Source: Candidatus Terrybacteria bacterium RIFCSPHIGHO2_01_FULL_48_17 (GTDB lineage Bacteria > Patescibacteriota > Minisyncoccia > Terrybacterales > 2-01-FULL-58-14). Taken from it: a stretch of DNA of 64,000 nt. This document shows, piece after piece, positions 4,558 to 59,726 of the stretch. Every line of letters starts with the position of its first letter. Positions within the stretch are counted from its first letter, which is position 1. Under the pieces are notes generated by a model. The model ran no database searches and was not told where the DNA came from. It was given only the letters and a program-made list of their open reading frames with translations. Location: contig MHSS01000002.1 of the NCBI GenBank assembly GCA_001822835.1, positions 1,060 through 65,059 on the forward strand. Direction: 5' to 3'. Position numbers and translations under genes: made by a program.

Positions 4558-4629
4558 GGGGGTGTAGCTCAGTGGTAGAGCACTGCATTCGCATTGCAGG
4601 GGTCAGGGGTTCGAATCCCCTCACCTCCA
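4558..4629 (+). tRNA. tRNA-Ala (anticodon CGC)
   Basis: Cloverleaf folded by hand: 7-bp acceptor stem with the G3:U70 Ala identity pair, D-arm gctc/gagc, anticodon loop ttCGCat, T-arm agggg-ttcgaat-cccct, discriminator A. CCA not encoded. Confidence 0.85.
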
Positions 4630-7921: not shown

Positions 7922-8052
7922 GCCAATTTTGCCTGTGGGCATCGGCGAACAGCTGCAAAATTGAGCATCTCGCCGAAGCGTAGCGAAGGCGGATTACCTG
8001 TAAAAACAGGGTACAGCAAATAGGGTACAGGGGACAGAATGATTGTGCAACG

Positions 8053-11167: not shown

Positions 11168-11746
11168 ATGATTGCCTTTATTGAGGGTGGGTTGGTGGCG
11201 AAAGGGGAAAAATACGCGATTGTGGAGGCCAACGGCGTTGGCTATAAGGTTTTTTTGACAAAAGAGTCCCTTTCCACGCTCCCTGAAATCGGGCACCGGG
11301 TCAAGCTGTTCACGCATCTTTATCTGCGCGAAAATGAAACCCTTGAGCTTTATGGCATGCGGAACGCAAAAGAGCTTTCGTTTTTTGAAACATTGTTAGA
11401 CGTGCCGGGGGTTGGACCAAAAGGGGCGCTCGGCATTTTAAGCGCCGCATCGGTTGATGACCTTGAGCGAGCCATTGCTTCTGGTGATGAGCGATTGCTC
11501 GAACGCGTGTCGGGGATTGGCAAAAAAACTGCAAAGAAAATTTTATTAGAACTTCAGTCGCGTTACGAAGGGTTAAGCATGGTGGTGGGGGAGATGCCGC
11601 ACGAGATGCAGGATGCCATGGATGCTCTTGTGAAACTTGGCTATTCCGATCGCGAAGCACGAGAGGCGATGAAGCATGTGCCGCAGGAAGCAAAAACGGT
11701 CGAGGAGAAAATTAAGGCGGCACTGAAGGCGCTTGGGGGAAAATAG
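11168..11746 (+). CDS. ruvA: Holliday junction branch-migration protein RuvA
   Basis: 192 aa from MIAFIEGGLVAKGEKYAIVEANGVGYKV (OB-fold domain I). Contains the HhH pair (GVGPKGA...GIGKKTA) and C-terminal domain III. Confidence 0.85.
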   Translation: MIAFIEGGLVAKGEKYAIVEANGVGYKVFLTKESLSTLPEIGHRVKLFTHLYLRENETLELYGMRNAKELSFFETLLDVPGVGPKGALGILSAASVDDLERAIASGDERLLERVSGIGKKTAKKILLELQSRYEGLSMVVGEMPHEMQDAMDALVKLGYSDREAREAMKHVPQEAKTVEEKIKAALKALGGK

Positions 11747-11850
11747 CTCGCGAACCATCCGGAAAAATTCTCCGCCTTCATATATGCGATACATTATTGA
11801 TCCCACCGCCAGCCCGAGAGAATTTTTCCGGACGTTCGCTCGCAAGAAAA
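11744..11850. repeat. ~105-bp MITE-like palindromic element, copy A
   Basis: Terminal inverted repeats gctcgcgaaccatccggaaaaattctc / gagaatttttccggacgttcgctcgc around a 45-nt core. About 95% identical to 39098-39197. Begins on the ruvA stop codon. Confidence 0.6.
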
Positions 11851-11942
11851 ATAGCGCTCGTTAAGCGCTCGCGCCCTGCTCGCAACCCCGCCGCATTTTC
11901 TGCGAAAGCACTTGGAGGGAAACAAAAAGAGCCTTGCGGCTC

Positions 11943-12245
11943 TTAGTCGGGAGGCGAGTACTCAGCAAACTCGCTGGCGATATCTTCTGGTAGGTATTGG
12001 TCAAGCATTTTACGCCCCTCGAAGTTGCTTGGCCCTCGGTAAGCGGCAGAAAAAGTTGCATGGCCGTTGATAAAGTGAATTGCGGCAAGATTTAATCCGT
12101 GTATTTTGATTGCAACTAGAGCCAATTTAAGCTGATTGCGCCCAAGGAGCGGATCGGCCTTGAACCATATTAGGCGACTTCGGAATTTATGTTGTACTGG
12201 ATCGTAATATTCCAGCACCACTCCGTCGCACCTTGGTTCTTCCAT
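11943..12245 (-). CDS. hypothetical protein
   Basis: 100 aa from MEEPRCDG.... The longer track ORF overlaps the FemAB gene start. No recognised motifs. Confidence 0.4.
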   Translation of the reverse strand: MEEPRCDGVVLEYYDPVQHKFRSRLIWFKADPLLGRNQLKLALVAIKIHGLNLAAIHFINGHATFSAAYRGPSNFEGRKMLDQYLPEDIASEFAEYSPPD

Positions 12246-12293
12246 TCTTCCTTTCCCCCTTCGTTTAATTAAGGTTCTGGTGTCCTCTTTATC

Positions 12294-13271
12294 ATGGAAA
12301 CAAAGGCGAGTCAAATATGGAACAATTTTGTCATACAACACAACGGCTCTTTTTTGCAGTCGTGGGAGTGGGGCGAGTTTCAGCAAACGGTTGGGAAAAA
12401 AGTTTTTTATCTTGAAGTGCACGAAATGCGTGGCCTGGTAATTGGGCACGCGTTGCCTTTGGGAATAAAATATTTCTATATACCACGCGGCCCGGTAGGG
12501 GAGAAGAATAGCTTTCCGGCATGGTTTAAAAAAATAAGCGAGCACGCAAAACAAGCCGGCGCAGTTTTTCTTCGTATCGAACCCCCAAATTCAGTTTCTA
12601 TATTCCAAATTCCAAATTCAAAATTCGTAGATTTGGGTCGCGCAATCCAACCACGGCAAAATCTTATTGTAGACCTTGCACACACAGAAGACGATTTGCT
12701 TGCCGGCATGCACGAGAAAACAAGATACAATATCCGACTAGCAGGAAGGCATGGAGTAACCACCAGGGTTCAGGGTTCAGGGGTCAGGAGTCAGGACGTA
12801 GGCGCCTTTTTGCTTTTACTGCATGAAACCGCAAAAGAACAGGATTTGAAAATCTATTCCGACGTATATTACCAAAAAATGCTTGAGGTCTTTATGGCCG
12901 GAGACGGCGCGCCTAATGCCACAAAGGGTATATTGTTTTTCGCGGATTATAAAGGAAAACCGCTTGCGACGGCGTTTTGCGTCGGTTTTGGGAGGCGATT
13001 AACATATCTGCACGGCGGTTCCTCGCGCGAACACAAAAACGTCATGGCGCCACAGTTGTTGCATTGGGAGATAATGCGGTGGGCAAAAGAAGCGGGATAT
13101 GCCGAATACGATATGGGAGGCATTGATGAAGCGAAGTGGCCCGGCCTTACGCGTTTTAAGAAGGGCTTTGGAGGTCGAACGGTTGCGTATGCGGGCATAT
13201 ATGAATATGCTTACAATCGTTTCGTATATTCCTTGTATCGGGTTGCGCATTTTTTGGCCTATCGATCTTAG
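12294..13271 (+). CDS. FemAB-family peptidoglycan bridge aminoacyltransferase
   Basis: 325 aa. FemAB hallmarks FLQSWEWGEF, GxxxRxTYLHGGS and a GNAT-like C-terminal half. Contains two in-frame oligo-repeat insertions. Confidence 0.7.
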   Translation: METKASQIWNNFVIQHNGSFLQSWEWGEFQQTVGKKVFYLEVHEMRGLVIGHALPLGIKYFYIPRGPVGEKNSFPAWFKKISEHAKQAGAVFLRIEPPNSVSIFQIPNSKFVDLGRAIQPRQNLIVDLAHTEDDLLAGMHEKTRYNIRLAGRHGVTTRVQGSGVRSQDVGAFLLLLHETAKEQDLKIYSDVYYQKMLEVFMAGDGAPNATKGILFFADYKGKPLATAFCVGFGRRLTYLHGGSSREHKNVMAPQLLHWEIMRWAKEAGYAEYDMGGIDEAKWPGLTRFKKGFGGRTVAYAGIYEYAYNRFVYSLYRVAHFLAYRS

Positions 13272-21532: not shown

Positions 21533-21955
21533 TTGGACAAAGATATGCCATATGAGATATTGCCGCACACCGCAGATGTTCGCGTAAAAGCGAGTGGCGC
21601 GTCGCTTGGGGAATTGTTTCGCGAGATGATGCGCGGTATGTTTCATGCGATGAAACCGCGGGGGACAGGGAACAGGGGACAGGGTACAGTACGGCACGAA
21701 ATAAAATTGGCGGCGTCGGATGGGGAAGCGCTGTTGGCGGATTTTTTAAATGAGGTACTGTATTTGGGCGAAACAAACCAAGAAGCGTATGAGGATGCAA
21801 AATTTTTAAAATTGTCGGACACGGAGTTGCAAGCAGAGCTCGTCGGCAAAAAACGCGAATCCGTTGCAGTGCAGGTGAAGGCGGCAACATATCATGGATT
21901 GAAGATTGAGGAGAAGGAGGGGCGGGTTGAGGCGACGGTGGTGTTCGATATTTGA
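21533..21955 (+). CDS. Archease (RtcB ligase activator)
   Basis: MPYEILPHTADVRVKASG...KAATYHGLKIEEKEGRVEATVVFDI matches the archease N- and C-terminal signatures. Alternative start at 21545. Carries an in-frame oligo-repeat insert (RGTGNRGQGTV). Confidence 0.8.
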   Translation: MDKDMPYEILPHTADVRVKASGASLGELFREMMRGMFHAMKPRGTGNRGQGTVRHEIKLAASDGEALLADFLNEVLYLGETNQEAYEDAKFLKLSDTELQAELVGKKRESVAVQVKAATYHGLKIEEKEGRVEATVVFDI

Positions 21956-23364: not shown

Positions 23365-23482
23365 AAATCCCAATGTCAAATGAAATTCCAAGTTCCAATG
23401 CCAAAAACCGAACGTGCGGGTCTTGGATATTATGTCATTGGACATTTATTTGGCATTTGGGCTTTTGATTTTTGATTTTTTA
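23365..23482. repeat. composite inverted oligo-repeat hairpin (AAATCCA/TTGGAAT-type units)
   Basis: ccaatgtcaaatgaaattccaagttccaatgccaaa ... tttggcatttgggcttttgatttttgatttt. Sits just upstream of rtcB. Confidence 0.6.
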
Positions 23483-23493
23483 TCCTCTCTTCT

Positions 23494-24927
23494 ATGGGCG
23501 CCATTTCTTCTCTTAAGCGCGTAAGCGATTATATTTACGAGATACCTAAAGATTTTAGGTCTGATATGCGCGTTCCGGCGCGGCTCTTTGCGTCCGAAAA
23601 GTTGCTTGTAGCGATTGGCAAGGACCGCTCGCTTGAGCAATTAGTGAACACCGCCACACTCCCTGGTATTGAACGCTACGCAATGGCAATGCCCGATATC
23701 CATGAGGGCTATGGTTTCCCCATAGGCGGGGTGGTGGCAACGCGCGTTGAGGATGGGATAATTTCTCCCGGCGGCGTGGGTTATGATATAAATTGCGGCG
23801 TCCGGTTGATCCGCTCGGAAGCAATGGTTTCAGATGTAAAATTAAAGCTTGAGGAACTCGCAACACAACTTCAGCATGATGTGCCGTCGGGTCTGGGCAG
23901 GGGAGGGCCGTTGGTGTTATCCGAGCAGCGTTTGGACGAAGTGATGCACAAGGGGGTTTCATGGATGCTTGAACAGGGGTACGGCGAACAAGGGGATAAC
24001 ACTTATTGCGAAGCGCAGGGAACATTATCAGATGCTGACCCTGGTTTTGTTTCAAGCCGTGCCAAAAAACGCGGGCGCGACCAATTAGGTACCATTGGTT
24101 CGGGAAACCATTTCGCAGAAGTTGAGCGCGTGGACGAGGTATTCGACGAAAGTGCAGCAAAAGCGCTCGGGCTTTTCAAAGACCAAGTGGTGTTTTTGGT
24201 ACATTGCGGCTCGCGCGGATTAGGGCATCAGGTGGCGACTGATTATATTCGGCAGTTTATGCCGAAGTTATCTGGGTGGGGGATTGTGTTGCCGGATCGG
24301 GAGCTTGTGGGCGCGCCATTTCATACGAAAGACGGCCAACAATATTTTCAGGCGATGAACGCGGCAGCAAACTTTGCGTTTGCGAATCGGCATTTCATTA
24401 TGCATAACATCCGGGGTGCGTGGCAGAAGATTTTTGGAGATTCGCTCGGGCGGCTCTCATTGGTGTATGACGTTGCACATAACATGGCAAAAATGGAAAA
24501 TCATCTGGGAAAACAATTGGTGGTGCATCGTAAGGGCGCAACGAGGGATTTTGAGCCAGACAGCCCGGAATTGCCCAAAGAGTATGGCGCAGTTGGTCAG
24601 CCCGTCCTTATTCCAGGGTCAATGGGCACGGCGTCGTTTGTGTTGGTCGGTACCGAAAAGGCAGAAGAGTTATCGTTTGCCACAACATGTCATGGAGCAG
24701 GCCGTCGGATGTCGCGTACGCAAGCAAGCAAACAAATTCCGTACGAAGAATTGGTAAGGAACATGAAACAACAAGGGATTGTGGTACGCTCGGGATCGCG
24801 CAGGGGGTTGGTAGAGGAAGCGCCGGAGGCGTATAAGGATGTTGAAGAGGTGGTGAGGGTGGTGCATGAGGTTGGAATAGCGAAGAGGGTCGTAAGATTA
24901 AAGCCGCTTGCCGTGGTGAAGGGGTAG
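23494..24927 (+). CDS. rtcB: RNA-splicing ligase RtcB
   Basis: 477 aa. RtcB metal- and GTP-binding motifs (PDIHEGYGFPIGG, GYDINCG, CHNG..H). Start fits the family. Confidence 0.9.
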   Translation: MGAISSLKRVSDYIYEIPKDFRSDMRVPARLFASEKLLVAIGKDRSLEQLVNTATLPGIERYAMAMPDIHEGYGFPIGGVVATRVEDGIISPGGVGYDINCGVRLIRSEAMVSDVKLKLEELATQLQHDVPSGLGRGGPLVLSEQRLDEVMHKGVSWMLEQGYGEQGDNTYCEAQGTLSDADPGFVSSRAKKRGRDQLGTIGSGNHFAEVERVDEVFDESAAKALGLFKDQVVFLVHCGSRGLGHQVATDYIRQFMPKLSGWGIVLPDRELVGAPFHTKDGQQYFQAMNAAANFAFANRHFIMHNIRGAWQKIFGDSLGRLSLVYDVAHNMAKMENHLGKQLVVHRKGATRDFEPDSPELPKEYGAVGQPVLIPGSMGTASFVLVGTEKAEELSFATTCHGAGRRMSRTQASKQIPYEELVRNMKQQGIVVRSGSRRGLVEEAPEAYKDVEEVVRVVHEVGIAKRVVRLKPLAVVKG

Positions 24928-33949: not shown

Positions 33950-34021
33950 GCCCCTATAGCTCAACGGACAGAGCGCAAGCCTCCGGAGCTTGAGATCGGG
34001 GTTCGATTCCTCGTAGGGGTA
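33950..34021 (+). tRNA. tRNA-Arg (anticodon CCG)
   Basis: Hand-folded cloverleaf: acceptor gccccta/taggggt (G1:U72), D-arm gctc/gagc, anticodon loop ctCCGga, T-arm cgggg-ttcgatt-cctcg, discriminator A. Confidence 0.75.
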
Positions 34022-36800: not shown

Positions 36801-36802
36801 AT

Positions 36803-36890
36803 ATCCAATCTCCAAATCCCAATTTCCAATATTATTTTTAAACGCGAAGCCATGTTGGTTATTTGGATTTTGGTATTGGGATTTTTGCAA
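36803..36890. repeat. composite inverted oligo-repeat hairpin (CCAAATC/GATTTGG units)
   Basis: ccaatctccaaatcccaatttccaat ... ttggttatttggattttggtattgggattt. Confidence 0.6.
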
Positions 36891-37357: not shown

Positions 37358-38507
37358 CGCCGGAAACAAAAAATACGTTTCTGGGTTTTGGGCTGCCACC
37401 GCAACGCTTGCGGGAACCATTATTGGCGCCGGAGTATTTGGATTGCCGTTTGCCGCCGCACAAAGCGGTTTTTTTGCGGCAATTATTTGGCTTTTGGTGC
37501 TTGCCGTGGCTGTAGCGCTTTTACACCTTATGCTTGCCGAGACCATTCTTCGTACTAACGGCCGGCATCGGCTCTCGGGTCTTGCAGAGCTTTATCTTGG
37601 AAAGGGGGCTGCGCGATTTGTGCTCGTGAGCGAATTGGTGGGGCTTACGGGATCACTGTTGATATATATTGTGCTGGGCGGTTTGTTCATTTCAAATATT
37701 TTTGGGGGTATCGCCACCCCCTTTTGGGGGAGCGTAGCATTTTGGTTTTTATTTAGCTTGCCGGCGTTGTTTGGCCTCCGACTTTTTGCCGAGGTGGAAC
37801 TTTTAATGTCTGGGGCGCTTGCGGTTTTATTTTTGGGGCTAAGTATTTTTTTATTTTCCGATTTTTCTTTTTCGCATATCCCATGGGTAACATCCAAGAG
37901 CATTGCCCAGTTTTTTGTTCCCTACGGAATCATCCTTTTTGCGCTTTTGGGGACCAATGCAATTTATTCCGTGCGTGATATGCTCGGAGGGCGCGAGGGA
38001 AGGGTTTTTGGTGCAGTGGCATGGGGCAGCATTATTCCTGCGGCGATCTATTTTTTATTTAGCTTTTCGGTGCTTGGGGTGACAGGAGCCGCGACTTCAG
38101 AAGAGGCAATTTCTGGTCTTGGAAGCGTCCTGGGATTTCCTGTGGTGGTTGCGGGGTCATTCGTGGGACTGCTTGCGCTTGCCACTTCCTATATGGTGAT
38201 TGCGCGTTATGTGGTGGAAGAACTATGGTTTGATGTGCGCTTGCCGCGTTCGTTTGCCTTTGTAATGCTTCTTGTACCGATTCTGCTTTTTGGGCTCGGC
38301 GCGCGTAATTTTATTGCGATTGCCGGGTTTGTGGGTACTGTTGTTGCCGCAATTTCCGGAACAATTATTGTATTAACCTGGTGGCGCGCCAAAACCAGGG
38401 GAGAGCGCAGATCAGAAATTCATGTTCCCGTGCCAAAAGTGGCTGCAATTGCTATAGTGGTTATGTTTCTTGTCGCTGCAATATTACAAGTCGCATTTTT
38501 ATTATGA
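37347..38507 (+). CDS. amino acid transporter-like polytopic membrane protein
   Basis: 386 aa with about 11 TM segments. Overlaps mgtC by 11 nt. Confidence 0.5.
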   Translation: MRSSAGNKKYVSGFWAATATLAGTIIGAGVFGLPFAAAQSGFFAAIIWLLVLAVAVALLHLMLAETILRTNGRHRLSGLAELYLGKGAARFVLVSELVGLTGSLLIYIVLGGLFISNIFGGIATPFWGSVAFWFLFSLPALFGLRLFAEVELLMSGALAVLFLGLSIFLFSDFSFSHIPWVTSKSIAQFFVPYGIILFALLGTNAIYSVRDMLGGREGRVFGAVAWGSIIPAAIYFLFSFSVLGVTGAATSEEAISGLGSVLGFPVVVAGSFVGLLALATSYMVIARYVVEELWFDVRLPRSFAFVMLLVPILLFGLGARNFIAIAGFVGTVVAAISGTIIVLTWWRAKTRGERRSEIHVPVPKVAAIAIVVMFLVAAILQVAFLL

Positions 38508-39043
38508 AAACACAAAAATTTTCCCAGAGAGGTACTAAAACTTTTTTGCGCTATACTCCAAGCCCGCGAAAAACGGAACAGGAATTTGGGCCGGGACGGC
38601 ACGAGTATTTTGTATGCTCCGATTGTGGCGCCGTTTATTTCAAGAAATCGTGGCATCATAGCTTTCGCGGCTCAAACGTGCGAGGCGGCAAGCATGTCCA
38701 TTTCACGAAATGCCCCGCATGTGCCATGATCGCAAACAAAAAGTTTGAAGGCGAAGTTTTTATTGATACCAGTAATCTTTCTGGAAAAATGCGCCAAGAA
38801 CTGATACAACACCTCCGGCACGTGGGGGAGCGGGCGTACGCGCGAGATCCGATGCACCGAATCATAAAGTTACAAGTTCAAGGTTCAAAAGGTTCAATAG
38901 TTCGGGTGACGACGACGGAAAATCAGTTGGCGATTCGAATTGGTAGGGAGGTTGAAAAATTATTGAAGGGAAAAGGGAGAAAGCGAGTGGAGTTTTCGAA
39001 GGAAGAGGATGTGGTGAGGGTGTTTTGGAAAAGCGCGCGCTAA
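38504..39043 (+). CDS. C4 zinc-ribbon protein, hypothetical
   Basis: 179 aa from MKTQKF, with CSDCG...CPAC. Contains an in-frame oligo-repeat insert (VQGSKGSIVRV). Confidence 0.5.
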   Translation: MKTQKFSQRGTKTFLRYTPSPRKTEQEFGPGRHEYFVCSDCGAVYFKKSWHHSFRGSNVRGGKHVHFTKCPACAMIANKKFEGEVFIDTSNLSGKMRQELIQHLRHVGERAYARDPMHRIIKLQVQGSKGSIVRVTTTENQLAIRIGREVEKLLKGKGRKRVEFSKEEDVVRVFWKSAR

Positions 39044-39097
39044 ATCTCGCGTTGGCCTGCGGGGGCGATCGCTCGGGATGCTCTTCGAAAAGAGGAT

Positions 39098-39197
39098 AGC
39101 TCGCGAACCGTCCGGAAAAATTCTCCGCCTCCATTGACTGCGATACATTATTGATCCCACCGCCAGCCCGAGAGAATTTTTCCGACAGTTCGCTCGC
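39098..39197. repeat. ~105-bp MITE-like palindromic element, copy B
   Basis: About 95% identical to 11744-11850, with the same terminal inverted repeats and core. Confidence 0.6.
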
Positions 39198-39305
39198 AAA
39201 AGAAACAACTGCGCCTTTCTCAGCGCATCCACTCGCTTTCAAATATTTTCTGCGGACGGGTTTCCTTTTTTCGGAAACGCTCGATTTAGGCGCACTTTCC
39301 ATATT

Positions 39306-40670
39306 ATGTCAATCCCTCGCGTTTTTCTATATTCTATCTTCCATCTTCTATCCTCGCGCAAAGAGGAGTTCCTCCTTGCGTTCTTCGTGCTTACCGCGCC
39401 TTTACAAATCCGATGGTTTTTGAAAGATCTTACCCAGCTTGTTGATGTTGAATGGACACAGGCATGGGTGTGGTTAAGCGATTTCGTTCTGTTGGCGCTT
39501 GTGGCGGTTTGGATATGGCGAGGGGGACATAAGGCAACGCGTGCGATGTGGCCGATTTTGTTTTCCGTTCCTGTGTTTGTGCTTGCCGCTTTAAGCCCCA
39601 ACCCGATCTTGGGTTTGTGGTCGGCAGTAAAACTTGCAGAAGGTCTTGCGCTTTTTTCGTATGTGCGCGCCAACAAAAACATTGCTTTCTCGCGCGCAAG
39701 CATCATCTCTTTTGTTGCCATTGTAACTATTATGGCCGTTGTCGCCATTGCCCAGTTTTGGTTGCAGCATGATTTGGGTCTTCAAAAAATAGGGGAGAGC
39801 GAGCTTTCGCCAAACCTTCCAGCGGTTGCAAAATTTGAGCTGCCTGATGGCTCAAAACTTATGCGCGCATATTCTTTGGCGCCGCATCCAAACATTGCCG
39901 CGGTGATATTTCTTGCCGGAATTTTTGTTATTTCGTGGCTGTACATCAAGCGGGGGGTGGGTTTGGTGTGGCGGTTCTCTTTTAAGCGACTTAAGCAAGA
40001 ACTTGTGCTTGGCGTTTCGCTTTTTGTGTTGTTATTTGCGCTTGCGGTTACGTTTTCCCGCAGCGCATGGATGGGATTTGTATTGGGCATTGGAGTTTTG
40101 GTGGCAGGTATTGTGATAATTCCGACGCTTCTTCGTGTCTATATCTTTGAAGCCCTGCGTTTTATGTTATTGGTCATTGCAATCGTTGGGTTGTTGTATT
40201 TTGCCGTTCCTGGAATGCAGATACGTACACATATCAACTCGCAGGAACAGGCAGTAACCCTGCGAAAGTTTTTCAGCGAACAGGCGATTGAAATGCTAAA
40301 AGAAAAGCCAATTTTAGGAGTTGGGCCCGGCCAATTTGTAGAGGAGCTGGCTGCGCGCCATATCGTGAACTTGCCGGGTGAGCGCTTAACGCTCGGGCCT
40401 ATATTTTTGCAGCCGGTGCACAATGTGCCGTTTTTGTGGGCAGCAGAATACGGCCTCCCTATCGCTATGCTTTTTTTGCTTTTTGGCATGTGGTTATTTT
40501 TGCGAAAACTCTTTAACATCATACGCGAATCCGGTCCGGCAAGTTCATTACAACGTCTTCTTGCCGTGTCGTTATTTGCGAGCTTTGTGTCGCTTTTCAT
40601 GTTCGATCATTTTTTCTGGACACTTCAACAGGGACGCCTGCTTTTCTTCTTGACGCTTGCCTTCCTCTAG
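39306..40670 (+). CDS. O-antigen ligase / Wzy_C family membrane protein
   Basis: 454 aa with about 11 TMs. Periplasmic loop motif PVHNVPFLWAAEYGL (the H...E...G pattern of WaaL). Confidence 0.65.
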   Translation: MSIPRVFLYSIFHLLSSRKEEFLLAFFVLTAPLQIRWFLKDLTQLVDVEWTQAWVWLSDFVLLALVAVWIWRGGHKATRAMWPILFSVPVFVLAALSPNPILGLWSAVKLAEGLALFSYVRANKNIAFSRASIISFVAIVTIMAVVAIAQFWLQHDLGLQKIGESELSPNLPAVAKFELPDGSKLMRAYSLAPHPNIAAVIFLAGIFVISWLYIKRGVGLVWRFSFKRLKQELVLGVSLFVLLFALAVTFSRSAWMGFVLGIGVLVAGIVIIPTLLRVYIFEALRFMLLVIAIVGLLYFAVPGMQIRTHINSQEQAVTLRKFFSEQAIEMLKEKPILGVGPGQFVEELAARHIVNLPGERLTLGPIFLQPVHNVPFLWAAEYGLPIAMLFLLFGMWLFLRKLFNIIRESGPASSLQRLLAVSLFASFVSLFMFDHFFWTLQQGRLLFFLTLAFL

Positions 40671-42142: not shown

Positions 42143-43480
42143 TTGCATCGTATGATGCATCCGATGCGTTGGTTCGGCGACTTTCATATTCATTCCCGGT
42201 TTTCGCGCGCAACATCAAAAGAGTTAACGTTGCCGGTGTTAGATGAGTGGGCACGCAAAAAAGGGATTGCAGTTATGGGAACGGGGGATTTTACGCATCC
42301 CCAATGGATTTCGGAACTTAAAGAACAACTCGAACCTTCGCCAGAGAAAGGATTATTCTGGCTTCGGAATGACAAAATCCAAAATCCAAAATCCAAAACG
42401 CGGTTTCTTTTGACGGTGGAGATTTCGAGCATTTACTCAAAAGCTGGGAGGGTGCGGAAGGTGCATACGATTCTATTTGCACCATCGTTTGAGGCGGCAG
42501 AGGCAATAAATGCTCGCCTTTCCTGGACCGGCAATTTAGCATCTGATGGCCGTCCTATTATCGGGATGGATGCGAAAGAGGTAGCAAAGATTGCGTTTAA
42601 GTCCTCGCCCGACTGTATGGTGATTCCGGCGCACGCATGGACTCCATGGTTTAGTATTTTTGGATCTATGTCCGGATTCGATAGTATCGAGGAATGTTTT
42701 GAAGAGCTTGCGCCAAATATTTTGGCAATAGAAACCGGTTTGTCGTCTGACCCATCCATGAACTGGCGAGTTTCGGCTCTTGATAATGTGGCTTTGATGT
42801 CTAACTCCGATAGTCATTCGGCAAGAAAAATCGGACGCGAGGTAAATGTACTTGATGGGGCAATGTCGTACCCCGCGATTGTAGACGCATTCCGAACCGG
42901 AGCGCCCGTACGCGCTGGCGAGCGCGAAAAAGCCGCTTGCAAGCTTTTGGGCACCATTGAATTTTTCCCGGAGGAAGGGAAATATCATTACGATGGGCAT
43001 CGTTTGTGCAAAGTACGCTGGACGCCGGCACAGACAAGAGAAAATAGTGGAAAGTGCACCGTATGCGGACGACCCGTAACGGTGGGGGTACTTTCGCGCG
43101 TGGATGATTTGGCAGATCGTCCAGAGGGACAAAAGCCCGAAGGCGCGCCGCATTTTCGTTCATTAGTACCGCTTGAGGAGATTATCGCTGATGTTGTGGG
43201 GGTTGGGACGGGCACAAAGTCGGTTGAGGGGAGTTATAACACGCTTGTTTCGGCGTTTGGAAATGAGTTTTCGGTGCTATTGGATGCGCCAATTGAACAA
43301 ATCGCCAAAGAATCTACTTCTCAAATCGCTGAAGGTATTCGGCGCGTGCGCGAACGGAAACTATATATCGAGCCGGGATACGACGGCGAATTTGGGAAAG
43401 TGAAGATTTTTGGGGAAGAGGAAAGGGAATCTATCGGTAAACAGGGATCGGGGGACAAGGAACAGGACAGTTTATTTTAA
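42143..43480 (+). CDS. PHP-domain nuclease, endonuclease Q-like (TIGR00375 family)
   Basis: 445 aa. N-terminal PHP motif FHIHSRFSRATS, a His-rich metal site, and a C-terminal Zn finger (C..HR..C...C..C). Confidence 0.5.
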   Translation: MHRMMHPMRWFGDFHIHSRFSRATSKELTLPVLDEWARKKGIAVMGTGDFTHPQWISELKEQLEPSPEKGLFWLRNDKIQNPKSKTRFLLTVEISSIYSKAGRVRKVHTILFAPSFEAAEAINARLSWTGNLASDGRPIIGMDAKEVAKIAFKSSPDCMVIPAHAWTPWFSIFGSMSGFDSIEECFEELAPNILAIETGLSSDPSMNWRVSALDNVALMSNSDSHSARKIGREVNVLDGAMSYPAIVDAFRTGAPVRAGEREKAACKLLGTIEFFPEEGKYHYDGHRLCKVRWTPAQTRENSGKCTVCGRPVTVGVLSRVDDLADRPEGQKPEGAPHFRSLVPLEEIIADVVGVGTGTKSVEGSYNTLVSAFGNEFSVLLDAPIEQIAKESTSQIAEGIRRVRERKLYIEPGYDGEFGKVKIFGEEERESIGKQGSGDKEQDSLF

Positions 43481-45386: not shown

Positions 45387-47165
45387 ATGTCAACCCCTTC
45401 TCTTTCAAACCAAGAGATTGCCCGTATTCTCTACCAAATCGGTGAGTATTTGGAATTACAAGATGTGGCGTTTAAGCCCCGAGCATATGAACGGGCCGCG
45501 CGAGCGCTTGAAACGCTGGGAGCTCCCGCAGGGGATATCTACCAAAAAGGAGGCCTTAAGGCCCTGGGTGAAATTTCGGGGGTGGGTGAGTCCATCGCGC
45601 AAAAAATAGAGGAACTTATCAGAACGGGGCATTTAAAATATTACGAGCAACTCAAGGAAAAACTACCCATGGATGTTGAGGCGTTATCCGCTATTGAGGG
45701 AGTCGGTCCCAAACATATAAAGCAATTTTGGCAAAAACTGAAGATAAAAAACGTTATCGATCTTGAAAAGGCCGCAAAAACGGGAAAGCTTCGGACACTT
45801 GAGCGCATGTCAGAAAAGTTAGAGCAGAAAATATTGCGCAGCATCGAGTTTCATAAGACCCATGGCGCGCGCTTTTTTATCGGCGCAATACTGCCAGAGA
45901 TTAGAGATATTGAGAAGCGGCTTAAGAATCTGCAATGGACCCGAAACGCAGCGGTTGCCGGATCCATTCGTCGCCGAAAGGAAACTGTTGGCGATGCTGA
46001 TATTCTTGCAACATCTGACCACTCTGCAAAAGTAATGGAATTTTTTATCAACATGCCCGAAGTCGCGGAGGTCTTGGCGCACGGTGACACCAAAAGCATG
46101 GTGCGTTTGCATAATGGCCTTGAGCTTGATTTGCGTGTGGTCCCAGAGGAGTCGTTTGGCGCGGCACTGCAATACTTTACCGGCAACAAAGACCATAATG
46201 TTGCATTGCGCAAAATTGCCATAGCGCGTGGCTGGAAGCTTAACGAGTACGGTCTATTCGGGGTACAGGGTGCAGGGGACAGGGGACAGAAACAAATTGC
46301 GGGAAGGACAGAAGAAGAAATATATGACAAGCTTGGCTTGGCGTATATTGAACCGGAGCTTCGCGAAATGACGGGAGAGCTGGAGGCCGCCATTCGGCAG
46401 GCGCAGGGCAAGCCCAACGGATTGCCGAAACTGATTGATTACAACGATTTGAAAGGCGATTTGCAAACGCAAACCAATTGGTCGGATGGCGAACATTCCA
46501 TTGAAGAAATGGCAAAAGCGGCACAAGCGCGGGGTTTAACATATCTTGCAATTACGGATCATTCAAAGCGGCTGGCAATGACCGGCGGGCTTGATGAGAA
46601 AAAAATCAAGAGGCAATGGAAAGAAATCGACCGCGTGAATAGGAAGCTCAAAGGTACTAGAATACTCAAAGGGAGCGAAGTTGATATATTAAAAGACGGT
46701 TCGCTCGATTTGCCCGACGCCATTTTGGCGCAGCTTGATGTGGTGGGCGCTTCTGTTCATTCTTATTTTGAAATGCCGCGTGCCGATATGACTAAACGTC
46801 TTTTGCGTACGATACAAAATCCGCACGTAGATATTTTATTTCATCCTACGGGGCGGGTAGTGAATAAACGAAAGCCCATTGAGGTTGATATGGAGATGTT
46901 GATAAAAGGGGCAAAAAAAACAGGGACGGTGTTAGAAGCAAACGCCTCTGAACGCCTTGATCTGAAGGATGAGCATATCAGAATGGCGGTTGAAGCGGGT
47001 GTGAAAATCGCCATCGATTCTGACGCCCATTCCAACGCACAGTTTTCTTTGCTTGAATATGGCATTGCGCAAGCAAGGCGCGGTTGGGCCACAGCAGAGG
47101 ATGTTATCAATACACGAACAGTTGACGATATGCTATTGCTTTTAAAGGGCAAGAGAACAAAGTAG
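45387..47165 (+). CDS. DNA polymerase X family protein with C-terminal PHP 3'-5' exonuclease domain
   Basis: 592 aa. HhH motifs, the Pol-beta-type nucleotidyltransferase GSIRRRKETVGDADIL, and PHP His/Asp clusters. Contains an in-frame oligo-repeat insert. Confidence 0.9.
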   Translation: MSTPSLSNQEIARILYQIGEYLELQDVAFKPRAYERAARALETLGAPAGDIYQKGGLKALGEISGVGESIAQKIEELIRTGHLKYYEQLKEKLPMDVEALSAIEGVGPKHIKQFWQKLKIKNVIDLEKAAKTGKLRTLERMSEKLEQKILRSIEFHKTHGARFFIGAILPEIRDIEKRLKNLQWTRNAAVAGSIRRRKETVGDADILATSDHSAKVMEFFINMPEVAEVLAHGDTKSMVRLHNGLELDLRVVPEESFGAALQYFTGNKDHNVALRKIAIARGWKLNEYGLFGVQGAGDRGQKQIAGRTEEEIYDKLGLAYIEPELREMTGELEAAIRQAQGKPNGLPKLIDYNDLKGDLQTQTNWSDGEHSIEEMAKAAQARGLTYLAITDHSKRLAMTGGLDEKKIKRQWKEIDRVNRKLKGTRILKGSEVDILKDGSLDLPDAILAQLDVVGASVHSYFEMPRADMTKRLLRTIQNPHVDILFHPTGRVVNKRKPIEVDMEMLIKGAKKTGTVLEANASERLDLKDEHIRMAVEAGVKIAIDSDAHSNAQFSLLEYGIAQARRGWATAEDVINTRTVDDMLLLLKGKRTK

Positions 47166-49880: not shown

Positions 49881-49949
49881 ACTAAGGGTACAGGAAACGG
49901 GGGGCAGGGGACAGTTTTTGGCTGAACCCTGAACTCCGAACCCTGATGA
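49881..49949. repeat. composite inverted oligo-repeat hairpin (GGGNACA / TGAACCC units) between rpmI and rplT
   Basis: gggtacaggaaacggggggcaggggacag-tttttgg-ctgaaccctgaactccgaaccctga. Confidence 0.6.
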
Positions 49950-50871: not shown

Positions 50872-50951
50872 AAATTAGGGAACAGGGTTCAGGGAATAGG
50901 GAACAGGCAAAACCTGATACCCGATTTCTGATACCTGATAGCAAATTTATG

Positions 50952-51321
50952 TGGAGATGGTGGGAGTTGAACCCACGTCAAAAGAATGCGCCGGGGCCTG
51001 TGTACGAGCGTAGTCCATCTTGTGTTTCTTTGGCAATTACGGTAGGAGACGGACAGAATCTATAATTGCCGCAGCTCAAATATTTCGCGCAAGCAATTGG
51101 GTAGGTGCTTGGCTAGCTCGATTATAACACCCTAAACCCCCTATCGAGCATCGGGGCAGGATGGCCTACATGCCAATTAGGCGTAGGCGTATGAGGGGCG
51201 CAAAGACCCCTTTGTCAATAAGTTTGCACTTATTTGGTTGGCTACAAAGATTAACGAGGAAGGCAGCCATCCTCGGCTCGCAAGCAACCCTTTGTATTCC
51301 TTTTCAAGGCCCGGCATCCCC
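50952..51321 (-). ncRNA. ssrA: tmRNA (SsrA)
   Basis: Minus-strand 5' GGGGAUG pairs with 3' CAUCUCC (a G3:U Ala identity pair). 3' T-arm gtggg-UUCAACU-cccac and discriminator A. Candidate tag ORF ...ANLLTKGSLRPSYAYA* with UAA. Located right downstream of smpB. Confidence 0.7.
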
Positions 51322-52574: not shown

Positions 52575-54260
52575 ATGCTGCGCTCTTTTGTTGAAGGCCC
52601 AGGCGGGCTTTTGGAACAAGCGCTCGCCCGGGCGTTTAAAAAACTGAAGCTCCCATTAGGGGGGGCGATTTTTGAGCGTCCGGAAAACCCAAAACATGGC
52701 GATTATGCAACGAGTGCTGCTTTGCGGCTTGCGAAGAAGGAAAAACGTCCGCAAATGGAGATTGCAAAAGGGCTTACGGATGAATTATTGCGTGATGCCC
52801 GTATTGCGCAGATGATTCAAAAAGCCGAAACAATACCTCCTGGTTTTATCAATATATTTCTGTCTCCTAAGTGGCTTCAGGCACAAATTCCCGGCATTAT
52901 CTCGTCCGGAGAAAACTACGGGAAAACCTTGCACTCGTCTTTTAGCGATAAACATTCCAAGGTGCAGGTTGAGTTTATTTCGGCAAACCCGACGGGTCCC
53001 TTGACGCTCGCCAACGGAAGAGGAGGATTTTTGGGAGATGTGCTTGCAAATATCCTTGAAGCCGCAGGCAATAATGTTACGCGCGAATATTATGTGAACG
53101 ATGCGGGGGAACAGGTGCGAAAGCTTGGCTGGTCCATCCTTGCGGCAAAGGGATACAAGACACCCTACCAAGCAGAGGAGCTTTATCAAGGCAGTTATAT
53201 TCGTGAGTTGGCGGAGAAGATAATGTCGCAAGAAATCCAAAATCCAAAATCCAAAATCCAAAACAAACCTCAAATCCAAACTTCGAAACTCGCGGAATAC
53301 GCGGCGAGGGAAGGGTCTAAGCTCTTGCTTAAAGACATCAAGCGCGTGGTGCGAAAGGCCGGGATTAGATTCGACGTATGGTTTTCGGAAAAAAGTTTAC
53401 ATCGCCAACGAATTGTCGACGAAGTGCTGAAGATAGTGAAACGAAAACGGCTCGTTGAAGAAAGAGAGGGCGCATTGTGGTTGCGCGCGCAAGAGCTTGG
53501 CGAATCCAAAGACAAGGTGCTGGTGAAGTCATCGGGCGACCCCACCTACCTTTTACCTGACCTTGCTTATCATTGGGAGAAGTTTATGCGTCGCAGATTT
53601 TCCAGCGTTATCGATATTGTGGGTGCAGACCATCATGGTCACATGCGGGCGTTGAGCGTAGGACTTAAAGTGCTTGGTCTGAAACAGCCATCCGTTATTT
53701 TGGTGCAATTTGTGCGACTTGTAGAAAATGGACAGGAAGTCAAGATGTCCAAGCGCGCAGGGACGTTTGTGACACTCGAGGAATTGCTCAATTCGGTTGG
53801 AAAGGATGTTGCGCGCTTTTTCTTTCTGCAGTCGTCGCCGACAAGCCACATGGACTTTGATCTTGCGCTTGCGCGCGAGCAATCGCAGAAAAACCCAGTG
53901 TATTATACGCAATATGCTCACGCGAGAATCGCAAGCATGTTGCGTAAATCCAAAATCCCAAATCCTAAATTCAAAACCGATTATACGCTGCTGCAGCATC
54001 CAAGCGAGATCGTTTTAATGAAACAAATCGTGCAGCTTCCTGATCTTGTGGGGCGTATTGCAAAAAACCATGAAGTGCATCATTTGACGACCTATAGCCG
54101 GGAACTTGCAACTGCTTTTCATGCATTTTACCGCGACTGCCGCGTCATCTCGGAAAACAAAGGAACAACCGCAGCGCGCCTTGCACTATGCCGTGCCACG
54201 CAAATAACACTTGCCAACACCCTTCGTTTTATGGGCATTCGGGCGCCGGAAAAAATGTAG
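52575..54260 (+). CDS. argS: Arginyl-tRNA synthetase
   Basis: 561 aa. Class I motif region FISANPTGPL (HIGH degenerate), KMSKRAG, and a DALR anticodon-binding C-terminus. Two in-frame AAATCCA-type repeat insertions (QNPKSKIQNKPQIQ; KSKIPNPKFK). Confidence 0.9.
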   Translation: MLRSFVEGPGGLLEQALARAFKKLKLPLGGAIFERPENPKHGDYATSAALRLAKKEKRPQMEIAKGLTDELLRDARIAQMIQKAETIPPGFINIFLSPKWLQAQIPGIISSGENYGKTLHSSFSDKHSKVQVEFISANPTGPLTLANGRGGFLGDVLANILEAAGNNVTREYYVNDAGEQVRKLGWSILAAKGYKTPYQAEELYQGSYIRELAEKIMSQEIQNPKSKIQNKPQIQTSKLAEYAAREGSKLLLKDIKRVVRKAGIRFDVWFSEKSLHRQRIVDEVLKIVKRKRLVEEREGALWLRAQELGESKDKVLVKSSGDPTYLLPDLAYHWEKFMRRRFSSVIDIVGADHHGHMRALSVGLKVLGLKQPSVILVQFVRLVENGQEVKMSKRAGTFVTLEELLNSVGKDVARFFFLQSSPTSHMDFDLALAREQSQKNPVYYTQYAHARIASMLRKSKIPNPKFKTDYTLLQHPSEIVLMKQIVQLPDLVGRIAKNHEVHHLTTYSRELATAFHAFYRDCRVISENKGTTAARLALCRATQITLANTLRFMGIRAPEKM

Positions 54261-54283: not shown

Positions 54284-57200
54284 ATGGATTTTTCGAAAAG
54301 CGAAGAAAAAATACTTAAAAGTTGGGAAAAGGGGAAAACCTTTAATGCTTCCCTTAAGGCAAGGGCCAAAGCTCCGCGTTTTATATTTTTTGAAGGACCG
54401 CCAACTGCCAATGGACGGCCGGGTATTCACCATTTATTGGGGCGCGCTTTCAAGGATGTTGTGTGCCGGTATAAAACTATGCGGGGCTTTTTGGTTGAAC
54501 GTCGGGCAGGATGGGATACGCATGGCCTTCCCGTTGAATTGGAAGTGGAAAGAGAGCTTGGGCTGAAGGCCAAGCAGGATATCGAGCAATATGGCATCGC
54601 CCGTTTTAATGCCCGCTGCAAAAAAAGCGTTTGGAAATATAAAGATGAATGGGAGAAATTTACCAGGCGTATCGGTTTCTGGATTGATCTTAATGACCCG
54701 TATATCACCTATACCAATGGCTATATTGAAACGCTTTGGTGGATCATCAAAAATATCTACGACCAAGGACTTTTGTATGAGGATTTTAAAGTAGTGCCAT
54801 GGTGTCCGCGGTGCGGATCGACGTTATCTTCTCACGAAGTGGCGTTGGGATATGAGTCGGTTTCCGAAAATTCCTTGTACGTAAAATTTAAAGTAAAAGG
54901 CGAAGCAAATACGTATATTTTGGGATGGACCACAACCCCTTGGACTTTGCCGGGTAATGTTGCGTTGGCAGTGGGCAGCGACACCGATTATGTAAAAGTA
55001 GAATTTTCGGGCATGGATGGGATTTATATTCTTGCAAAAGATAGCGTTGGACGGATAAGCCGTGCCCTGCAGCTAACTGGTGAGGTTTCTGGATCGGTAC
55101 TAAAAGGGCATGAGCTTGTCGGTTTTGCATATGAGCCGCTGTTTGATATTCCCGAAACACAAAACGAAAAAAGCCATAAAGTGTACGCAGCTGATTTTGT
55201 AAATACCGACGAGGGAACAGGTATTGTGCATACCGCCGCGATGTACGGGGAAGACGACTATCGGCTTGGTGTGCGCGTGGGTTTGCCAAAAGTTCACACC
55301 GTTGATGAGGAAGGAAGATTTCTGCCAAATGTTCCAGCGGGTCTTGCCGGTCGGCAGGTTAAAGCAAAAGATACCGAACAAGACATTCTTGCACATCTTA
55401 TAAAACGCAATCTTTTGTTTAAGGAGGAGCAATATACGCATGACTATCCTTTTTGTTGGCGCTGCAAAAGCGCATTGCTTTATTACGCCAAAAGGTCATG
55501 GTTTATTAAAATGTCGCAGCTGCGCGCGAAACTTATTTCAGAAAACGAACGGGTTAATTGGATACCCGAGCATCTTAAGTCCGGAAGGTTTGGCGAATGG
55601 CTTCGTGAGCTTAAGGATTGGGCGTTTTCGCGCGAACGCTATTGGGGAACCCCCTTACCTATTTGGCGATGCGTGGAATGCGGCGAAACCGAAGCAGTCG
55701 GTTCGCTGAAAGAATTGGGAGCTCGCAGCAAGATGAGGAACCGCTATATTTTATTGCGTCACGCCGAAGCGAAGTCCAATGTCGAAAGCTGGGTGTCATG
55801 TATGCCCGAAAAAAAGAGAAGCCCTCTTACTAAAAAGGGAAGGGCACAGGCGAGACAGGCGGCAGATAGTTTAAAAAAATATAAACCAGACGTAATCGTA
55901 AGTTCGCCGCTTGAGCGCACAAACGAAACTGCGGCAATCGTTGGGAATTTGCTTGATCTGCCCGTGATCATAGAAAGCAGGATTCAGGAATTTAAGCTTG
56001 GCACATTTAATACCCGCCCCGTCGATGAATACCACAAGTTTTTGGGGTATAAGCCCGAGGCCCATTGGGATAAAAAACCGCTTGGAGGTGAAACGTGGAA
56101 AGAATTGCGCAAGCGCATGCTTGTTGCAGTAAAGGATCTTGAGAAGAAATACGAAGGGAAAACGATTGTTTTAGTAAGTCATGGAGATCCGCTTTTTGTT
56201 TTGCAGGGAGCGCTTCTTGGGATAGACGAAAATGATTTTGCGGTTTCGTATCGGCACGCATATCCCAAATATCAATCACAAGCAAAGGGAAGGCGTATAC
56301 CATATCCGGAAACAGGAAAGCCGTTGGTATTGCCAAATTATGCATTGCCGCTTGATGAGTCGGGTCGGCCCGATTTGCACCGTCCTTTTGTGGACGAGCT
56401 TACTTTTTCTTGTAAAAAATGCAAGGGCTTTATGCGACGCGTACCAGAGGTCATTGATGTCTGGTTCGATTCCGGCGCCATGCCGTTCGCTTCGCAGACC
56501 GACGCGGATTTGGCCCGGCAAGTTGCGGGGCAGGCGCGGACAGACGCGGGAAATGTTCAGCGTGGGTCAGCGTCCAGTCAGCGTAAGTCAGCGTTTCTCT
56601 ATCCGGCAGACTTTATTTGTGAGGGCATTGATCAGACGCGCGGATGGTTTTACACCTTACTTGCAGTGGCGACACTGTTGGGCCGAGAACGACCATATAG
56701 AAACGTAATTTCACATGGGCATGTCCTTGATAAAAACGGGAAAAAAATGTCCAAATCCCTGGGTAATATGGTAAGTCCATGGGACATGGTTGAACGATAT
56801 GGCGCCGATGCGGTGCGATGGTATTTTTACACCATTAATCAGCCAAGCGATCCGAAACGTTTTGATGAACAAGACGTGAAACGGGTGCAGCAGCGTTTTA
56901 TTGGAACGCTATACAACCTTCTTGCTTTTTGGCATACCTATTCGCGCACAAAAAAGGGTACAGGGTACAGGGTACAGGGTACGGGGTTGACGGTTTTAGA
57001 CAGGTGGATTCTTTCCCGCATAAACACCGTAATCGAACGGGTTTGCCAGTATATGGATGCATACGACTTGGTTAACGCCGCACGGCTTCTTGATACGTTT
57101 GCGGTTGACGATTTGTCTAACTGGTATGTGCGCCGTTCGCGTGAACGTTTCCAGCACCCCAAGAATCGCAGTGAACGTGTTTATGCCGAGGCGTTATTAA

Positions 57201-57958: not shown

Positions 57959-58525
57959 ATGCGGGCATTAATTCTTCAAACTGAATCAGTAGGCGAGGCG
58001 GATTGGGAGATAACCATGCTTTCCGAGGAGCTTGGTAAGCTGCGCGTCAAGGCCAAAGGCGCTGCCAAAATGGAGTCGAAATTGCGTGCCGGCATTTTGC
58101 CATTTGTTACGAGCGATGTTATGTTGCATCCCCAAAAGAACGGGGGTTTTCTTTTAAAAACCGCTGCACCGTACGTAGAACGTCTATCAATACGAGAATC
58201 GCTTTGTGCGCTTTCGGTGGCAGAGGTCTTTGCCGAGATTCTTTTAGCAATAACCGGGGAGGGGATTGTGGACGAAAAGCTGTTTTTATTTGCGGAAAAG
58301 GCATTTGATGCGCTCGAAGAAGGCAAGGATCCCGTAACGGTGTTTCTCTATGCCGTCTCTGCATTTATTCGGGAAGCAGGTCTTGCGCCTCCCAAAAACG
58401 CTCATGACCTTCCTTTATTTATGCAAGAACACTTCGAGTACCCGCTTGGCAGCTTTTCTTTTATGCAAAAGGCGTGTCATGAGGTAAAATATAGGAGCGA
58501 TGCCCAAGAGACGGTATTTATATGA
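57959..58525 (+). CDS. recO: DNA repair protein RecO
   Basis: 188 aa with an N-terminal OB-fold pattern (ALILQTESVGEADWEITMLSEELGKLRVKAKGA). The C-terminus is shorter than E. coli RecO. Confidence 0.6.
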   Translation: MRALILQTESVGEADWEITMLSEELGKLRVKAKGAAKMESKLRAGILPFVTSDVMLHPQKNGGFLLKTAAPYVERLSIRESLCALSVAEVFAEILLAITGEGIVDEKLFLFAEKAFDALEEGKDPVTVFLYAVSAFIREAGLAPPKNAHDLPLFMQEHFEYPLGSFSFMQKACHEVKYRSDAQETVFI

Positions 58526-59673: not shown

Positions 59674-59726
59674 TAATGCCACACGGCCCGATGTATCGTA
59701 TTGGGCAATTTTGGTACAATAAGAAC

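Follow-up and report, generated by a model that had tools for sequence, protein, structure and literature searches.

Rickettsia palindromic elements (RPEs) are situated in intergenic DNA and also in frame in housekeeping genes, and nearly half of the RPEs of R. conorii are located in ORFs (PMC10969869, summarising Ogata et al. 2000, 2002). Enterobacterial repetitive intergenic consensus elements (ERICs) are imperfect palindromes of ~127 bp found in transcribed intergenic regions, with occasional intragenic copies and with effects on mRNA stability (PMC10969869). Correia elements, which have arms of ~26 bp, are co-transcribed and their stems are cleaved by RNase III; they can also invert in place and mark points of rearrangement (PMC10969869). 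Here, we describe a hairpin repeat that is present in two copies in a 64-kb stretch of DNA from a Candidatus Terrybacteria genome (called the window hereafter) and in further copies in other genomes. The genomes of Patescibacteria (CPR bacteria) are tiny and contain little non-coding DNA; to our knowledge, almost nothing is known of their repeats and non-coding RNAs. The hairpin repeat represents a so-far undescribed family that is widespread in these bacteria.

The original prediction of two near-identical copies in the window, the first starting on the stop codon of ruvA and the second in a spacer of ~260 nt, was borne out. The copies, which we call A and B, are 93-95% identical across ~105 nt. 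Their similarity spans positions 11743-11851 for copy A and 39096-39205 for copy B and stops at the element ends; they are thus not parts of a segmental duplication. They have a 28-nt exact word in common, for which the expectation is 0 (100 shuffles). Both consist of complementary arms of 26-27 nt, forming a stem that we call P1, on either side of a core of 45-46 nt. The stop codon of ruvA (TAG) occupies positions 11744-11746, and the 5' arm of copy A starts on its G. Copy B lies in a spacer of 262 nt, between a gene end at 39043 and a gene start at 39306. As for the 'GCTCGCG-rich' flanks also noted earlier, GCTCGCG is the outer part of the arm itself, and further GCTCGC words are indeed found 3' of copy A. 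The features are as follows.

11168..11746, + strand: ruvA, the gene directly 5' of copy A (context)
11746..11843, + strand: copy A, the whole hairpin repeat (78.1 bits with the family covariance model R1)
11746..11772, + strand: 5' arm of P1 of copy A (GCTCGCGAACCATCCGGAAAAATTCTC), 27 nt; its first base is the G of the ruvA stop codon
11773..11817, + strand: conserved core, or loop, of copy A, 45 nt, composed of CGCCTTCAT, an AU-rich linker and TTGATCCCACCGCCAGCCCGA; this is the short form, without an inner hairpin
11818..11843, + strand: 3' arm of P1 of copy A (GAGAATTTTTCCGGACGTTCGCTCGC), 26 nt
11943..12275, - strand: small convergent gene 3' of copy A, a homologue of L045:2107-2442, with no Pfam domain
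38504..39043, + strand: gene 5' of copy B (UniRef name 'Nmd3 N-terminal domain-containing protein', Candidatus Terrybacteria)
39099..39197, + strand: copy B, the whole hairpin repeat (67.8 bits with model R1)
39099..39125, + strand: 5' arm of P1 of copy B
39126..39171, + strand: conserved core, or loop, of copy B
39172..39197, + strand: 3' arm of P1 of copy B, within which the assembly L051 diverges from the window
39306..40670, + strand: Wzy_C/O-antigen-ligase-like gene 3' of copy B (context)

Both copies are predicted to fold into a long hairpin, with minimum free energies as RNA of -36.9 kcal/mol for copy A (z = -5.5) and -33.8 kcal/mol for copy B (z = -4.1), and the opposite strand folds equally well. 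When the 64-kb window was scanned with the covariance model, copies A and B scored 78 and 68 bits and all else at most 16 bits; the window thus holds exactly two copies. Five other assemblies of this organism contain copy B with an unchanged sequence.

To collect further members, we used an exact 20-mer from the core, which led to the Patescibacteria MAG REEB69, and a second, overlapping 20-mer, which led to metagenome loci. The first word is found in six copies on six contigs of REEB69, plus one chance match in a GC-rich gene. The second matched 31 metagenome loci from groundwater and sediment, amounting to ~24 distinct copies after removal of duplicates and of two chance matches in coding sequence. 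In addition, there are one solitary half-core (L020) and one copy truncated by a contig end. The copy number is at least two to three in the window organism and at least six in REEB69. With these further copies in other genomes, the situation that the original prediction had named as its refutation, namely that only two copies exist and belong to a larger duplication, clearly does not apply.

The copies follow a common plan, with a 5' arm, the motif CGCCUYYAUYU, a variable middle, the motif (A/U)UGAUCCCACCGCCAGCCCGA and a 3' arm. The core is pyrimidine-rich and unpaired, and it is C-rich and G-poor on the + strand. Its 5' motif CGCCU, which lies outside both search words, is present without change in all 24 copies that were aligned. 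The mean identity between copies is 0.84 and 0.96 for the two core motifs, a conservation partly inflated by the retrieval of copies with exact 20-mers, and 0.38 for the arms. The earlier description of the arms as terminal inverted repeats of fixed sequence thus does not fit the family, as only their complementarity and length are kept between copies. Several copies came to light independently of the search words, namely L021:11851-11933 (L021b), the inner copy of L031 and four copies in arginyl-tRNA synthetase (ArgRS) genes described below (L039, L041, L054 and L055). They differ from the searched 20-nt word by one or two mismatches in the ArgRS copies (two in L041) and by five or six in L021b and the inner copy of L031. 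Membership of the family therefore extends beyond exact matches to the word, and retrieval accounts in part, but not entirely, for the 3' motif being nearly invariant. The neighbouring proteins RuvA and UvrB are 53% and 57% identical, respectively, between the window organism and REEB69, a much lower conservation than that of the core.

The Rfam check proposed earlier returned no family for the element. At the gathering threshold, the window yielded only tmRNA and two tRNAs, and 15 of the loci yielded nothing at the elements. At E<=10, copy A matched only miRNA-type noise at 15-18 bits, and the long form described below gave noise only. Viral contigs and the records of phages and plasmids contained no match to the element, and a full-text literature search returned no paper that describes a repeat of this kind from Patescibacteria or Parcubacteria.

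P1 usually measures 24-28 bp, and the sequence of its arms is free, with complementarity kept. In an ungapped alignment of 24 copies, all 18 P1 pairs tested change on both sides. The proportion of P1 cells that are paired is 87.5%, vs 47% in shuffles and 40-56% with the partner arm slid. Uninterrupted runs of at least 18 Watson-Crick pairs are found in 13 of 30 copies, and runs of at least 24 in 11 of 30. At 4-7 bp from the loop, most copies have an A/T tract, in which U5 of the 5' arm usually pairs with A5 of the 3' arm. G.U and A.C pairs are equally numerous in P1, at 14 each; since G.U pairs are not the commoner, P1 bears no mark of selection acting on a particular RNA strand. That so many stems are perfect and yet unrelated in sequence suggests that the complementarity of the arms is maintained by a templated process at the DNA level.

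Three types of middles were distinguished. In the window and in REEB69 copies, the middle is an AU-rich linker of ~12 nt; in others it is a short GC hairpin, e.g. CCCUUUCAGGG. The third type is a domain of ~140 nt present in five loci (L010, L011, L019, L033 and L035), which gives a long form of ~230 nt, e.g. L010:8935-9162 on the minus strand. The inner domain of this long form opens with its own 16-bp stem, followed by a junction of further helices. RNAalifold predicted 76 pairs for the five long forms, 30 of them compensatory, with one G.U pair conserved in four of the five. The four helices of the inner domain covary, and the conserved nucleotides of the long form include unpaired ones. 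The domain counts 10 G.U against 4 A.C pairs on the + strand, and in this predicted fold the G.U excess mildly favours the + strand as the folding strand. We considered whether the inner domain might be an independent nested repeat and rejected this idea; because its motifs occur only within the outer element, with a constant position and orientation, it is treated as a domain of the family. A hammerhead-like reading of a GAUGAG motif in the long form was also discarded, as CUGA and GAAA are missing on inspection by eye.

We then related the copies to the genes around them, using a crude but uniform ORF rule for the orientation count. Out of 22 cases, the + strand of the element is that of the gene ending just upstream in 18, and in one more that gene is a tRNA. 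The element starts 0-56 nt after the upstream stop codon, and the next gene is often 14-40 nt away. With this mostly sense orientation after genes, the element is usually part of a sense transcript, as a 3' UTR or between cistrons. Since the element seems able to flip, as described below for ArgRS genes, the orientation bias suggests selection or a strand-specific insertion step. In the window itself, the GC skew is positive throughout and copies A and B have the same orientation, so that the directions of transcription and replication are inseparable here.

No promoter-like or terminator-like site was called at the window copies. The element does not have the make-up of an intrinsic terminator, with A-rich 3' flanks and a 45-nt loop at the window copies and a T-rich tail in only 4 of 30 copies. 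Some copies (L012, L022, L025 and L037) do look like terminators made of an A-tract, a stem and a T-tract. The idea that the element inserts into pre-existing terminator loops, its arms being derived from the target, was rejected as a general rule since copies at different sites within a genome share whole arms of 27-33 bp (A and B in the window; L004-L006 in REEB69). An origin from tRNA or tmRNA, or antisense pairing with them, was likewise set aside: the core shares only TCCCACC with the 3' end of tmRNA, and the duplex energies of the core with the tmRNA and tRNAs of the window are within those of shuffled controls.

Some copies are located inside ORFs encoding ArgRS. In the ArgRS gene of L008, which is antisense to the + strand of the element, the repeat is in frame and encodes ...KKKLDFSSVGLAVGSFSKNKIEAREEKSGF...; the insertion site is the linker before the DALR anticodon-binding domain. 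The ArgRS genes of L008, L041, L054 and L055 harbour it in the same orientation and encode ...S[IVF]GLAVGS.... Among 25 close ArgRS homologues, the segment, which measures 17-20 residues, is present in four others, in the same orientation in P0005, P0019 and P0025 and in the opposite orientation in P0001, and most homologues are devoid of it. The family model found the element at 48-66 bits in the DNA of those homologues. The protein with the opposite orientation (P0001, locus L039) is 81% identical to that of L008 and encodes ...FIFKYINDSTASPIEKKQ... (...INDSTASP...) at this place. This pair is most simply explained by a flip in place, mediated by the inverted arms, that left the reading frame intact. 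The bounds of the insertion are not cleanly delimited because the linker is variable in all homologues. A general, conserved small ORF was rejected as an explanation of the family, as the minus-strand GLAVGS frame is open in the window copies and closed by TAA in REEB69.

Comparisons of orthologous sites point to mobility. Both the window and REEB69, whose RuvA and UvrB have the levels of identity given above, carry the element after ruvA, and this site is empty in four relatives that are closer or no more distant, L044 (RuvA 78% identical), L045 (77%), L046 and L047 (59% each). In L044, L046 and L047, ruvA abuts femAB; in L045, it is followed by an ordinary terminator hairpin only and then by the small convergent gene that the window also has. 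In a 99%-identical strain, the contig breaks off precisely with the stop codon of ruvA, as a repeat would be expected to cause. Shared arms are found within one genome, in copies A and B of the window and in L004-L007 of REEB69, and not between genomes. In L022 and L037, copies located after the same gene (82% amino acid identity) have almost identical cores and inner hairpins and unrelated arms. L031 contains one copy nested, in inverted orientation, in the variable middle of another. Finally, the assembly L051 is identical to the window up to copy B and continues with a different 3' arm and an unrelated downstream gene. This junction results either from recombination with a third copy or from an assembly chimera at the repeat; under either reading, there is a third copy in that population.

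In 30 copies, we found no consistent direct repeat and no TA or other target duplication at the stem feet. A-rich words flank some copies on both sides, including copy A (GAAAATAG / GAAAAATAG), and this is not general. No precise junction between filled and empty sites could be aligned. As there is neither a consistent target duplication nor such a junction, transposition is something that we infer rather than observe. In 56 ORFs of the window, no Pfam domain of a transposase, integrase, reverse transcriptase or HUH nuclease was found, and no gene family recurs beside the copies at the 30 loci. We looked for an autonomous partner in which the 5' and 3' halves of the core would be split by an ORF and found no such case; the half-core of L020 is a solitary 3' half without arms.

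We compared these properties with those of the described systems. Like RPEs, which are hairpin repeats of ~100-150 bp in reduced-genome bacteria, the element is both intergenic and in frame, adding a peptide without breaking the frame, and no associated transposase or clear target duplication was found. Insertion of a hairpin with preservation of the reading frame, the hallmark of RPEs, is found here in the ArgRS genes of the five loci mentioned above, including L039. However, the likeness, compared by description, is functional only, and the hosts belong to another phylum. The in-frame copies are also the minority here (one gene family, ArgRS, among ~30 loci), and unlike RPEs the family is characterized by a conserved central loop, free arms and a long form with a structured domain. 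Like ERICs, the element is conserved in many genera, its locations varying with the species, and it has longer variants produced by internal insertion at fixed points. In contrast, ERICs are conserved over their full length including the arms, whereas only the loop is conserved here, and the hosts are unrelated. The Correia elements (CREE) of Neisseria are also small palindromic repeats, with arms of similar length, but their terminal inverted repeats (TIRs) are conserved, they duplicate a TA target and they contain internal promoters as well as an IHF site; we saw none of these features here.

Other systems may resemble the element in the way in which their DNA is recognized. For REP/BIME elements and their RAYT enzymes (IS200/IS605-like Y1) and for HUH origins, a DNA hairpin is recognized rather than terminal repeats, and there is no target duplication. 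In HUH origins such as those of circoviruses and geminiviruses, the stem varies and the loop sequence is conserved, which makes them the closest analogy to the design with a conserved loop and a variable stem. In contrast with our ~100-nt element, REPs are ~35 nt long (~20-40 nt), have a conserved GTAG-type 5' tetranucleotide and are species-specific in sequence; no conserved tetranucleotide was found at the stem foot among the family copies. The loop, of at least 45 nt, is also much longer than known nick-site loops, and no Y1 or HUH protein was found in the window or recurrently near the copies. Integron attC sites are hairpin recombination sites after stop codons, whose sequence varies and structure is kept, with a variable terminal structure. 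However, attC sites conserve the stem foot (R''/R') and vary at the centre, and the reverse is true here; no integrase was seen in the window and no cassette array. As for classical MITEs, the element is likewise small, non-coding, multi-copy and polymorphic for insertion, but it lacks conserved TIRs, and no cognate transposase element was found within 56 window ORFs and the neighbourhoods of the 30 loci. A conserved centre with changing arms is the reverse of a classical MITE.

The family thus differs from RPEs, ERICs, Correia elements and classical MITEs in what is conserved, namely the central loop together with the length and pairing of a stem whose sequence is free. If this reading is right, a design so unlike the logic in which a transposase binds the ends would point to recognition via a single-stranded hairpin. 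The nearest mechanistic analogy is with the recognition of single-stranded hairpins by HUH/Y1 enzymes or integron integrases, none of which is linked to the element here. The labels first proposed for the element, MITE, REP-like element or structured small RNA, were therefore right in part. A small, non-autonomous, palindromic, multi-copy and probably mobile repeat agrees with the many copies in several genomes, the filled and empty orthologous sites, the nested copy and the in-frame gene copy. Those specific labels do not fit, as the arms are 38% identical, no consistent target duplication or transposase partner was found, and there is no GTAG-type REP signature or matching Rfam family.

We consider that the element is probably a non-autonomous, selfish or mobile palindromic repeat of the general kind of RPEs, ERICs and Correia elements, widespread in Patescibacteria. 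It is unlikely to be primarily a structured RNA useful to the host, be it a small RNA or a module acting in cis in 3' UTRs or between cistrons, with copies kept by selection and with a long stem that would present the conserved, C-rich loop to a G-rich RNA or a protein. Its roles might be protection of mRNA 3' ends, processing, a Rho loading site or a decoy. Such a function would account for a core that is nearly invariant between hosts with RuvA and UvrB proteins of 53-57% identity, for the C-rich, G-poor and unpaired loop on the + strand and for the strong sense-strand bias right after stop codons in spite of an evident ability to invert in place. The four-helix domain of the long form, with its 30 compensatory pairs, its conserved G.U pair and its G.U excess on the + strand (10 vs 4 A.C), also speaks for it. 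However, a host RNA fits poorly with orthologous sites that are filled in some genomes and empty in others, with a copy nested within a copy and with ArgRS copies translated in both orientations. The lack of a G.U excess in P1, of promoter- or terminator-like sites at the window copies, of an Rfam match and of complementarity to the window tmRNA and tRNAs beyond that of shuffled controls argues in the same direction. A useful RNA role is not incompatible with a selfish origin. In another, more speculative reading, which we regard as a long shot, the family would be a new type of mobile element that is protein-less or depends on host enzymes and is recognized via the conserved loop on a self-templated stem of fixed length. 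The long form would then be the complete, active version, for instance a catalytic or protein-recruiting RNA or single-stranded DNA, and the short forms, including both window copies, would be deletion derivatives riding on it. If true, this would explain both the conservation of the loop across lineages as distant as those of the window and REEB69 (RuvA and UvrB 53-57% identical) and the fact that no transposase was found.

IHF-binding BIME/RIP and Correia elements are examples of sites for nucleoid proteins, and the perfect Watson-Crick palindromes formed by the arms, devoid of an RNA-type wobble bias, and the A/T tract at a fixed distance from the core might suggest a comparable role at the DNA level. 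The element would then be a site for protein binding or recombination on a cruciform or hairpin, recognized by a nucleoid-associated protein or serving as a polar replication or segregation signal, with its orientation set by replication. The common orientation of both window copies on a stretch of uniformly positive GC skew agrees with this proposal. We nevertheless find it very improbable, in view of the low copy number, of positions that differ between related genomes and of an asymmetric multi-helix domain with G.U pairs in the long form that duplex DNA would not need; an informal comparison by eye also yielded no match to simple known consensus sites. That there are only two copies in the window could be taken to mean that their similarity is fortuitous or reflects a larger segmental duplication private to this genome, but this has next to no chance of being correct, since the similarity stops at the element ends, the shared 28-nt word is expected zero times and dozens of related copies exist in other genomes.

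Returning to a mobile palindromic repeat as the preferred explanation, we propose that a trans-acting factor recognizes the hairpin and its conserved loop in a single-stranded intermediate, in which the stem would matter as a structure alone. The complementarity of the arms would be maintained by a templated process at the DNA level, one arm being copied from the other or corrected within the strand, rather than by slow compensation at the RNA level. The element would land mostly just 3' of stop codons and rarely in permissive protein linkers, where it is translated. Its copies would flip in place by recombination between the arms and also serve as substrates for recombination with one another. 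Once inserted, the element would be co-transcribed with the upstream gene, given its sense orientation in most cases. By analogy with Correia elements, the duplex of 24-28 bp may then act as a hairpin in 3' UTRs or between cistrons and would probably be a substrate of RNase III.

The weight of evidence favours an element long resident in Patescibacteria. If our interpretation is correct, it would be the CPR counterpart of RPEs, ERICs and Correia elements, one that spreads after stop codons and adds a peptide to an essential enzyme, ArgRS. It would also break assemblies and mark rearrangement points. In practical terms, the core 20-mer would be a specific marker with which contigs of Patescibacteria can be retrieved, and the repeat would explain contig breaks in their assemblies.

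The long form of the hairpin element, of ~230 nt, was found at five metagenome loci, where it occupies the following positions:

L010:8935-9162 (-)
L011:1312-1532
L019:8516-8738
L033:203-428 (-)
L035:4212-4439 (-)

It contains a conserved inner domain of four helices (GUGCGGCAACUACGGA ... GAUGAGGCGUAGGC ... GGUGCCGUCAGG); 30 pairs show compensatory changes, and one G.U pair is conserved. Rfam returned no match for this long form. The long form could represent an independently functional RNA. At yet another locus, an element copy (L031:2394-2572, +) encloses a second one (L031:2436-2517, -), which is inverted relative to the outer copy and placed in the variable middle of the latter.

On their 3' side, both window copies, which are of the short form, are followed by an A-rich run and then by a short GC hairpin:

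11853-11869, - strand, 3' of copy A
39210-39227, - strand, 3' of copy B

The two GC hairpins differ in sequence, and hence they lie outside the repeat. Read on the minus strand, the run and hairpin look like a small terminator; next to copy B, there is no minus-strand gene that requires one.

The window also harbours two families of heptamer repeats. Those of the GGGNACA type form short tandem arrays of three to five units:

8007-8039
12764-12796
21659-21691
46259-46291
49884-49916
50883-50915
56954-56986
62834-62866

They resemble the cyanobacterial STRR heptanucleotide repeats but, in contrast with these, sit in coding sequence. Several are positioned in frame within ORFs, and the array at 12764-12796, TRVQGSGVRSQD, is carried by a FemAB-like gene. 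Relative to UvrB of REEB69, another Patescibacteria genome, the window UvrB has two 10-residue insertions, GTGVRGQGTE and RVQSSENRVQ. AAAATCC units make up the second family:

12587-12632
23377-23408
36801-36832
42368-42399
53233-53264
53946-53991

Two of these arrays are found within the window's own arginyl-tRNA synthetase (ArgRS) gene (52575-54257). In many other CPR ArgRS proteins, KIQNPK- or FKPQ-like low-complexity linkers seem to be encoded by an AAAATCC-type repeat, at the exact site where other ArgRS harbour the palindromic element.

The gene at 54284-57859 (+) codes for an isoleucyl-tRNA synthetase-like protein of 1192 residues, whose class I catalytic domain is interrupted by a His_Phos_1 (histidine-phosphatase) domain (residues 489-652). 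Further downstream, a 74-nt direct repeat (58552-58625 and 59760-59833; 91% identity, 1.2 kb spacing) falls in two adjacent ORFs (58522-59118 and 59670-60368) devoid of Pfam domains, which are probably paralogous genes.

The Rfam search of the window yielded only three matches:

50949-51321 (-), tmRNA gene
4558-4629 (+), tRNA gene
33950-34021 (+), tRNA gene

Finally, the window codes for an RtcB RNA ligase (23494-24924, +; 558 bits). This gene may be of interest with regard to how the organism cleaves and ligates RNA.
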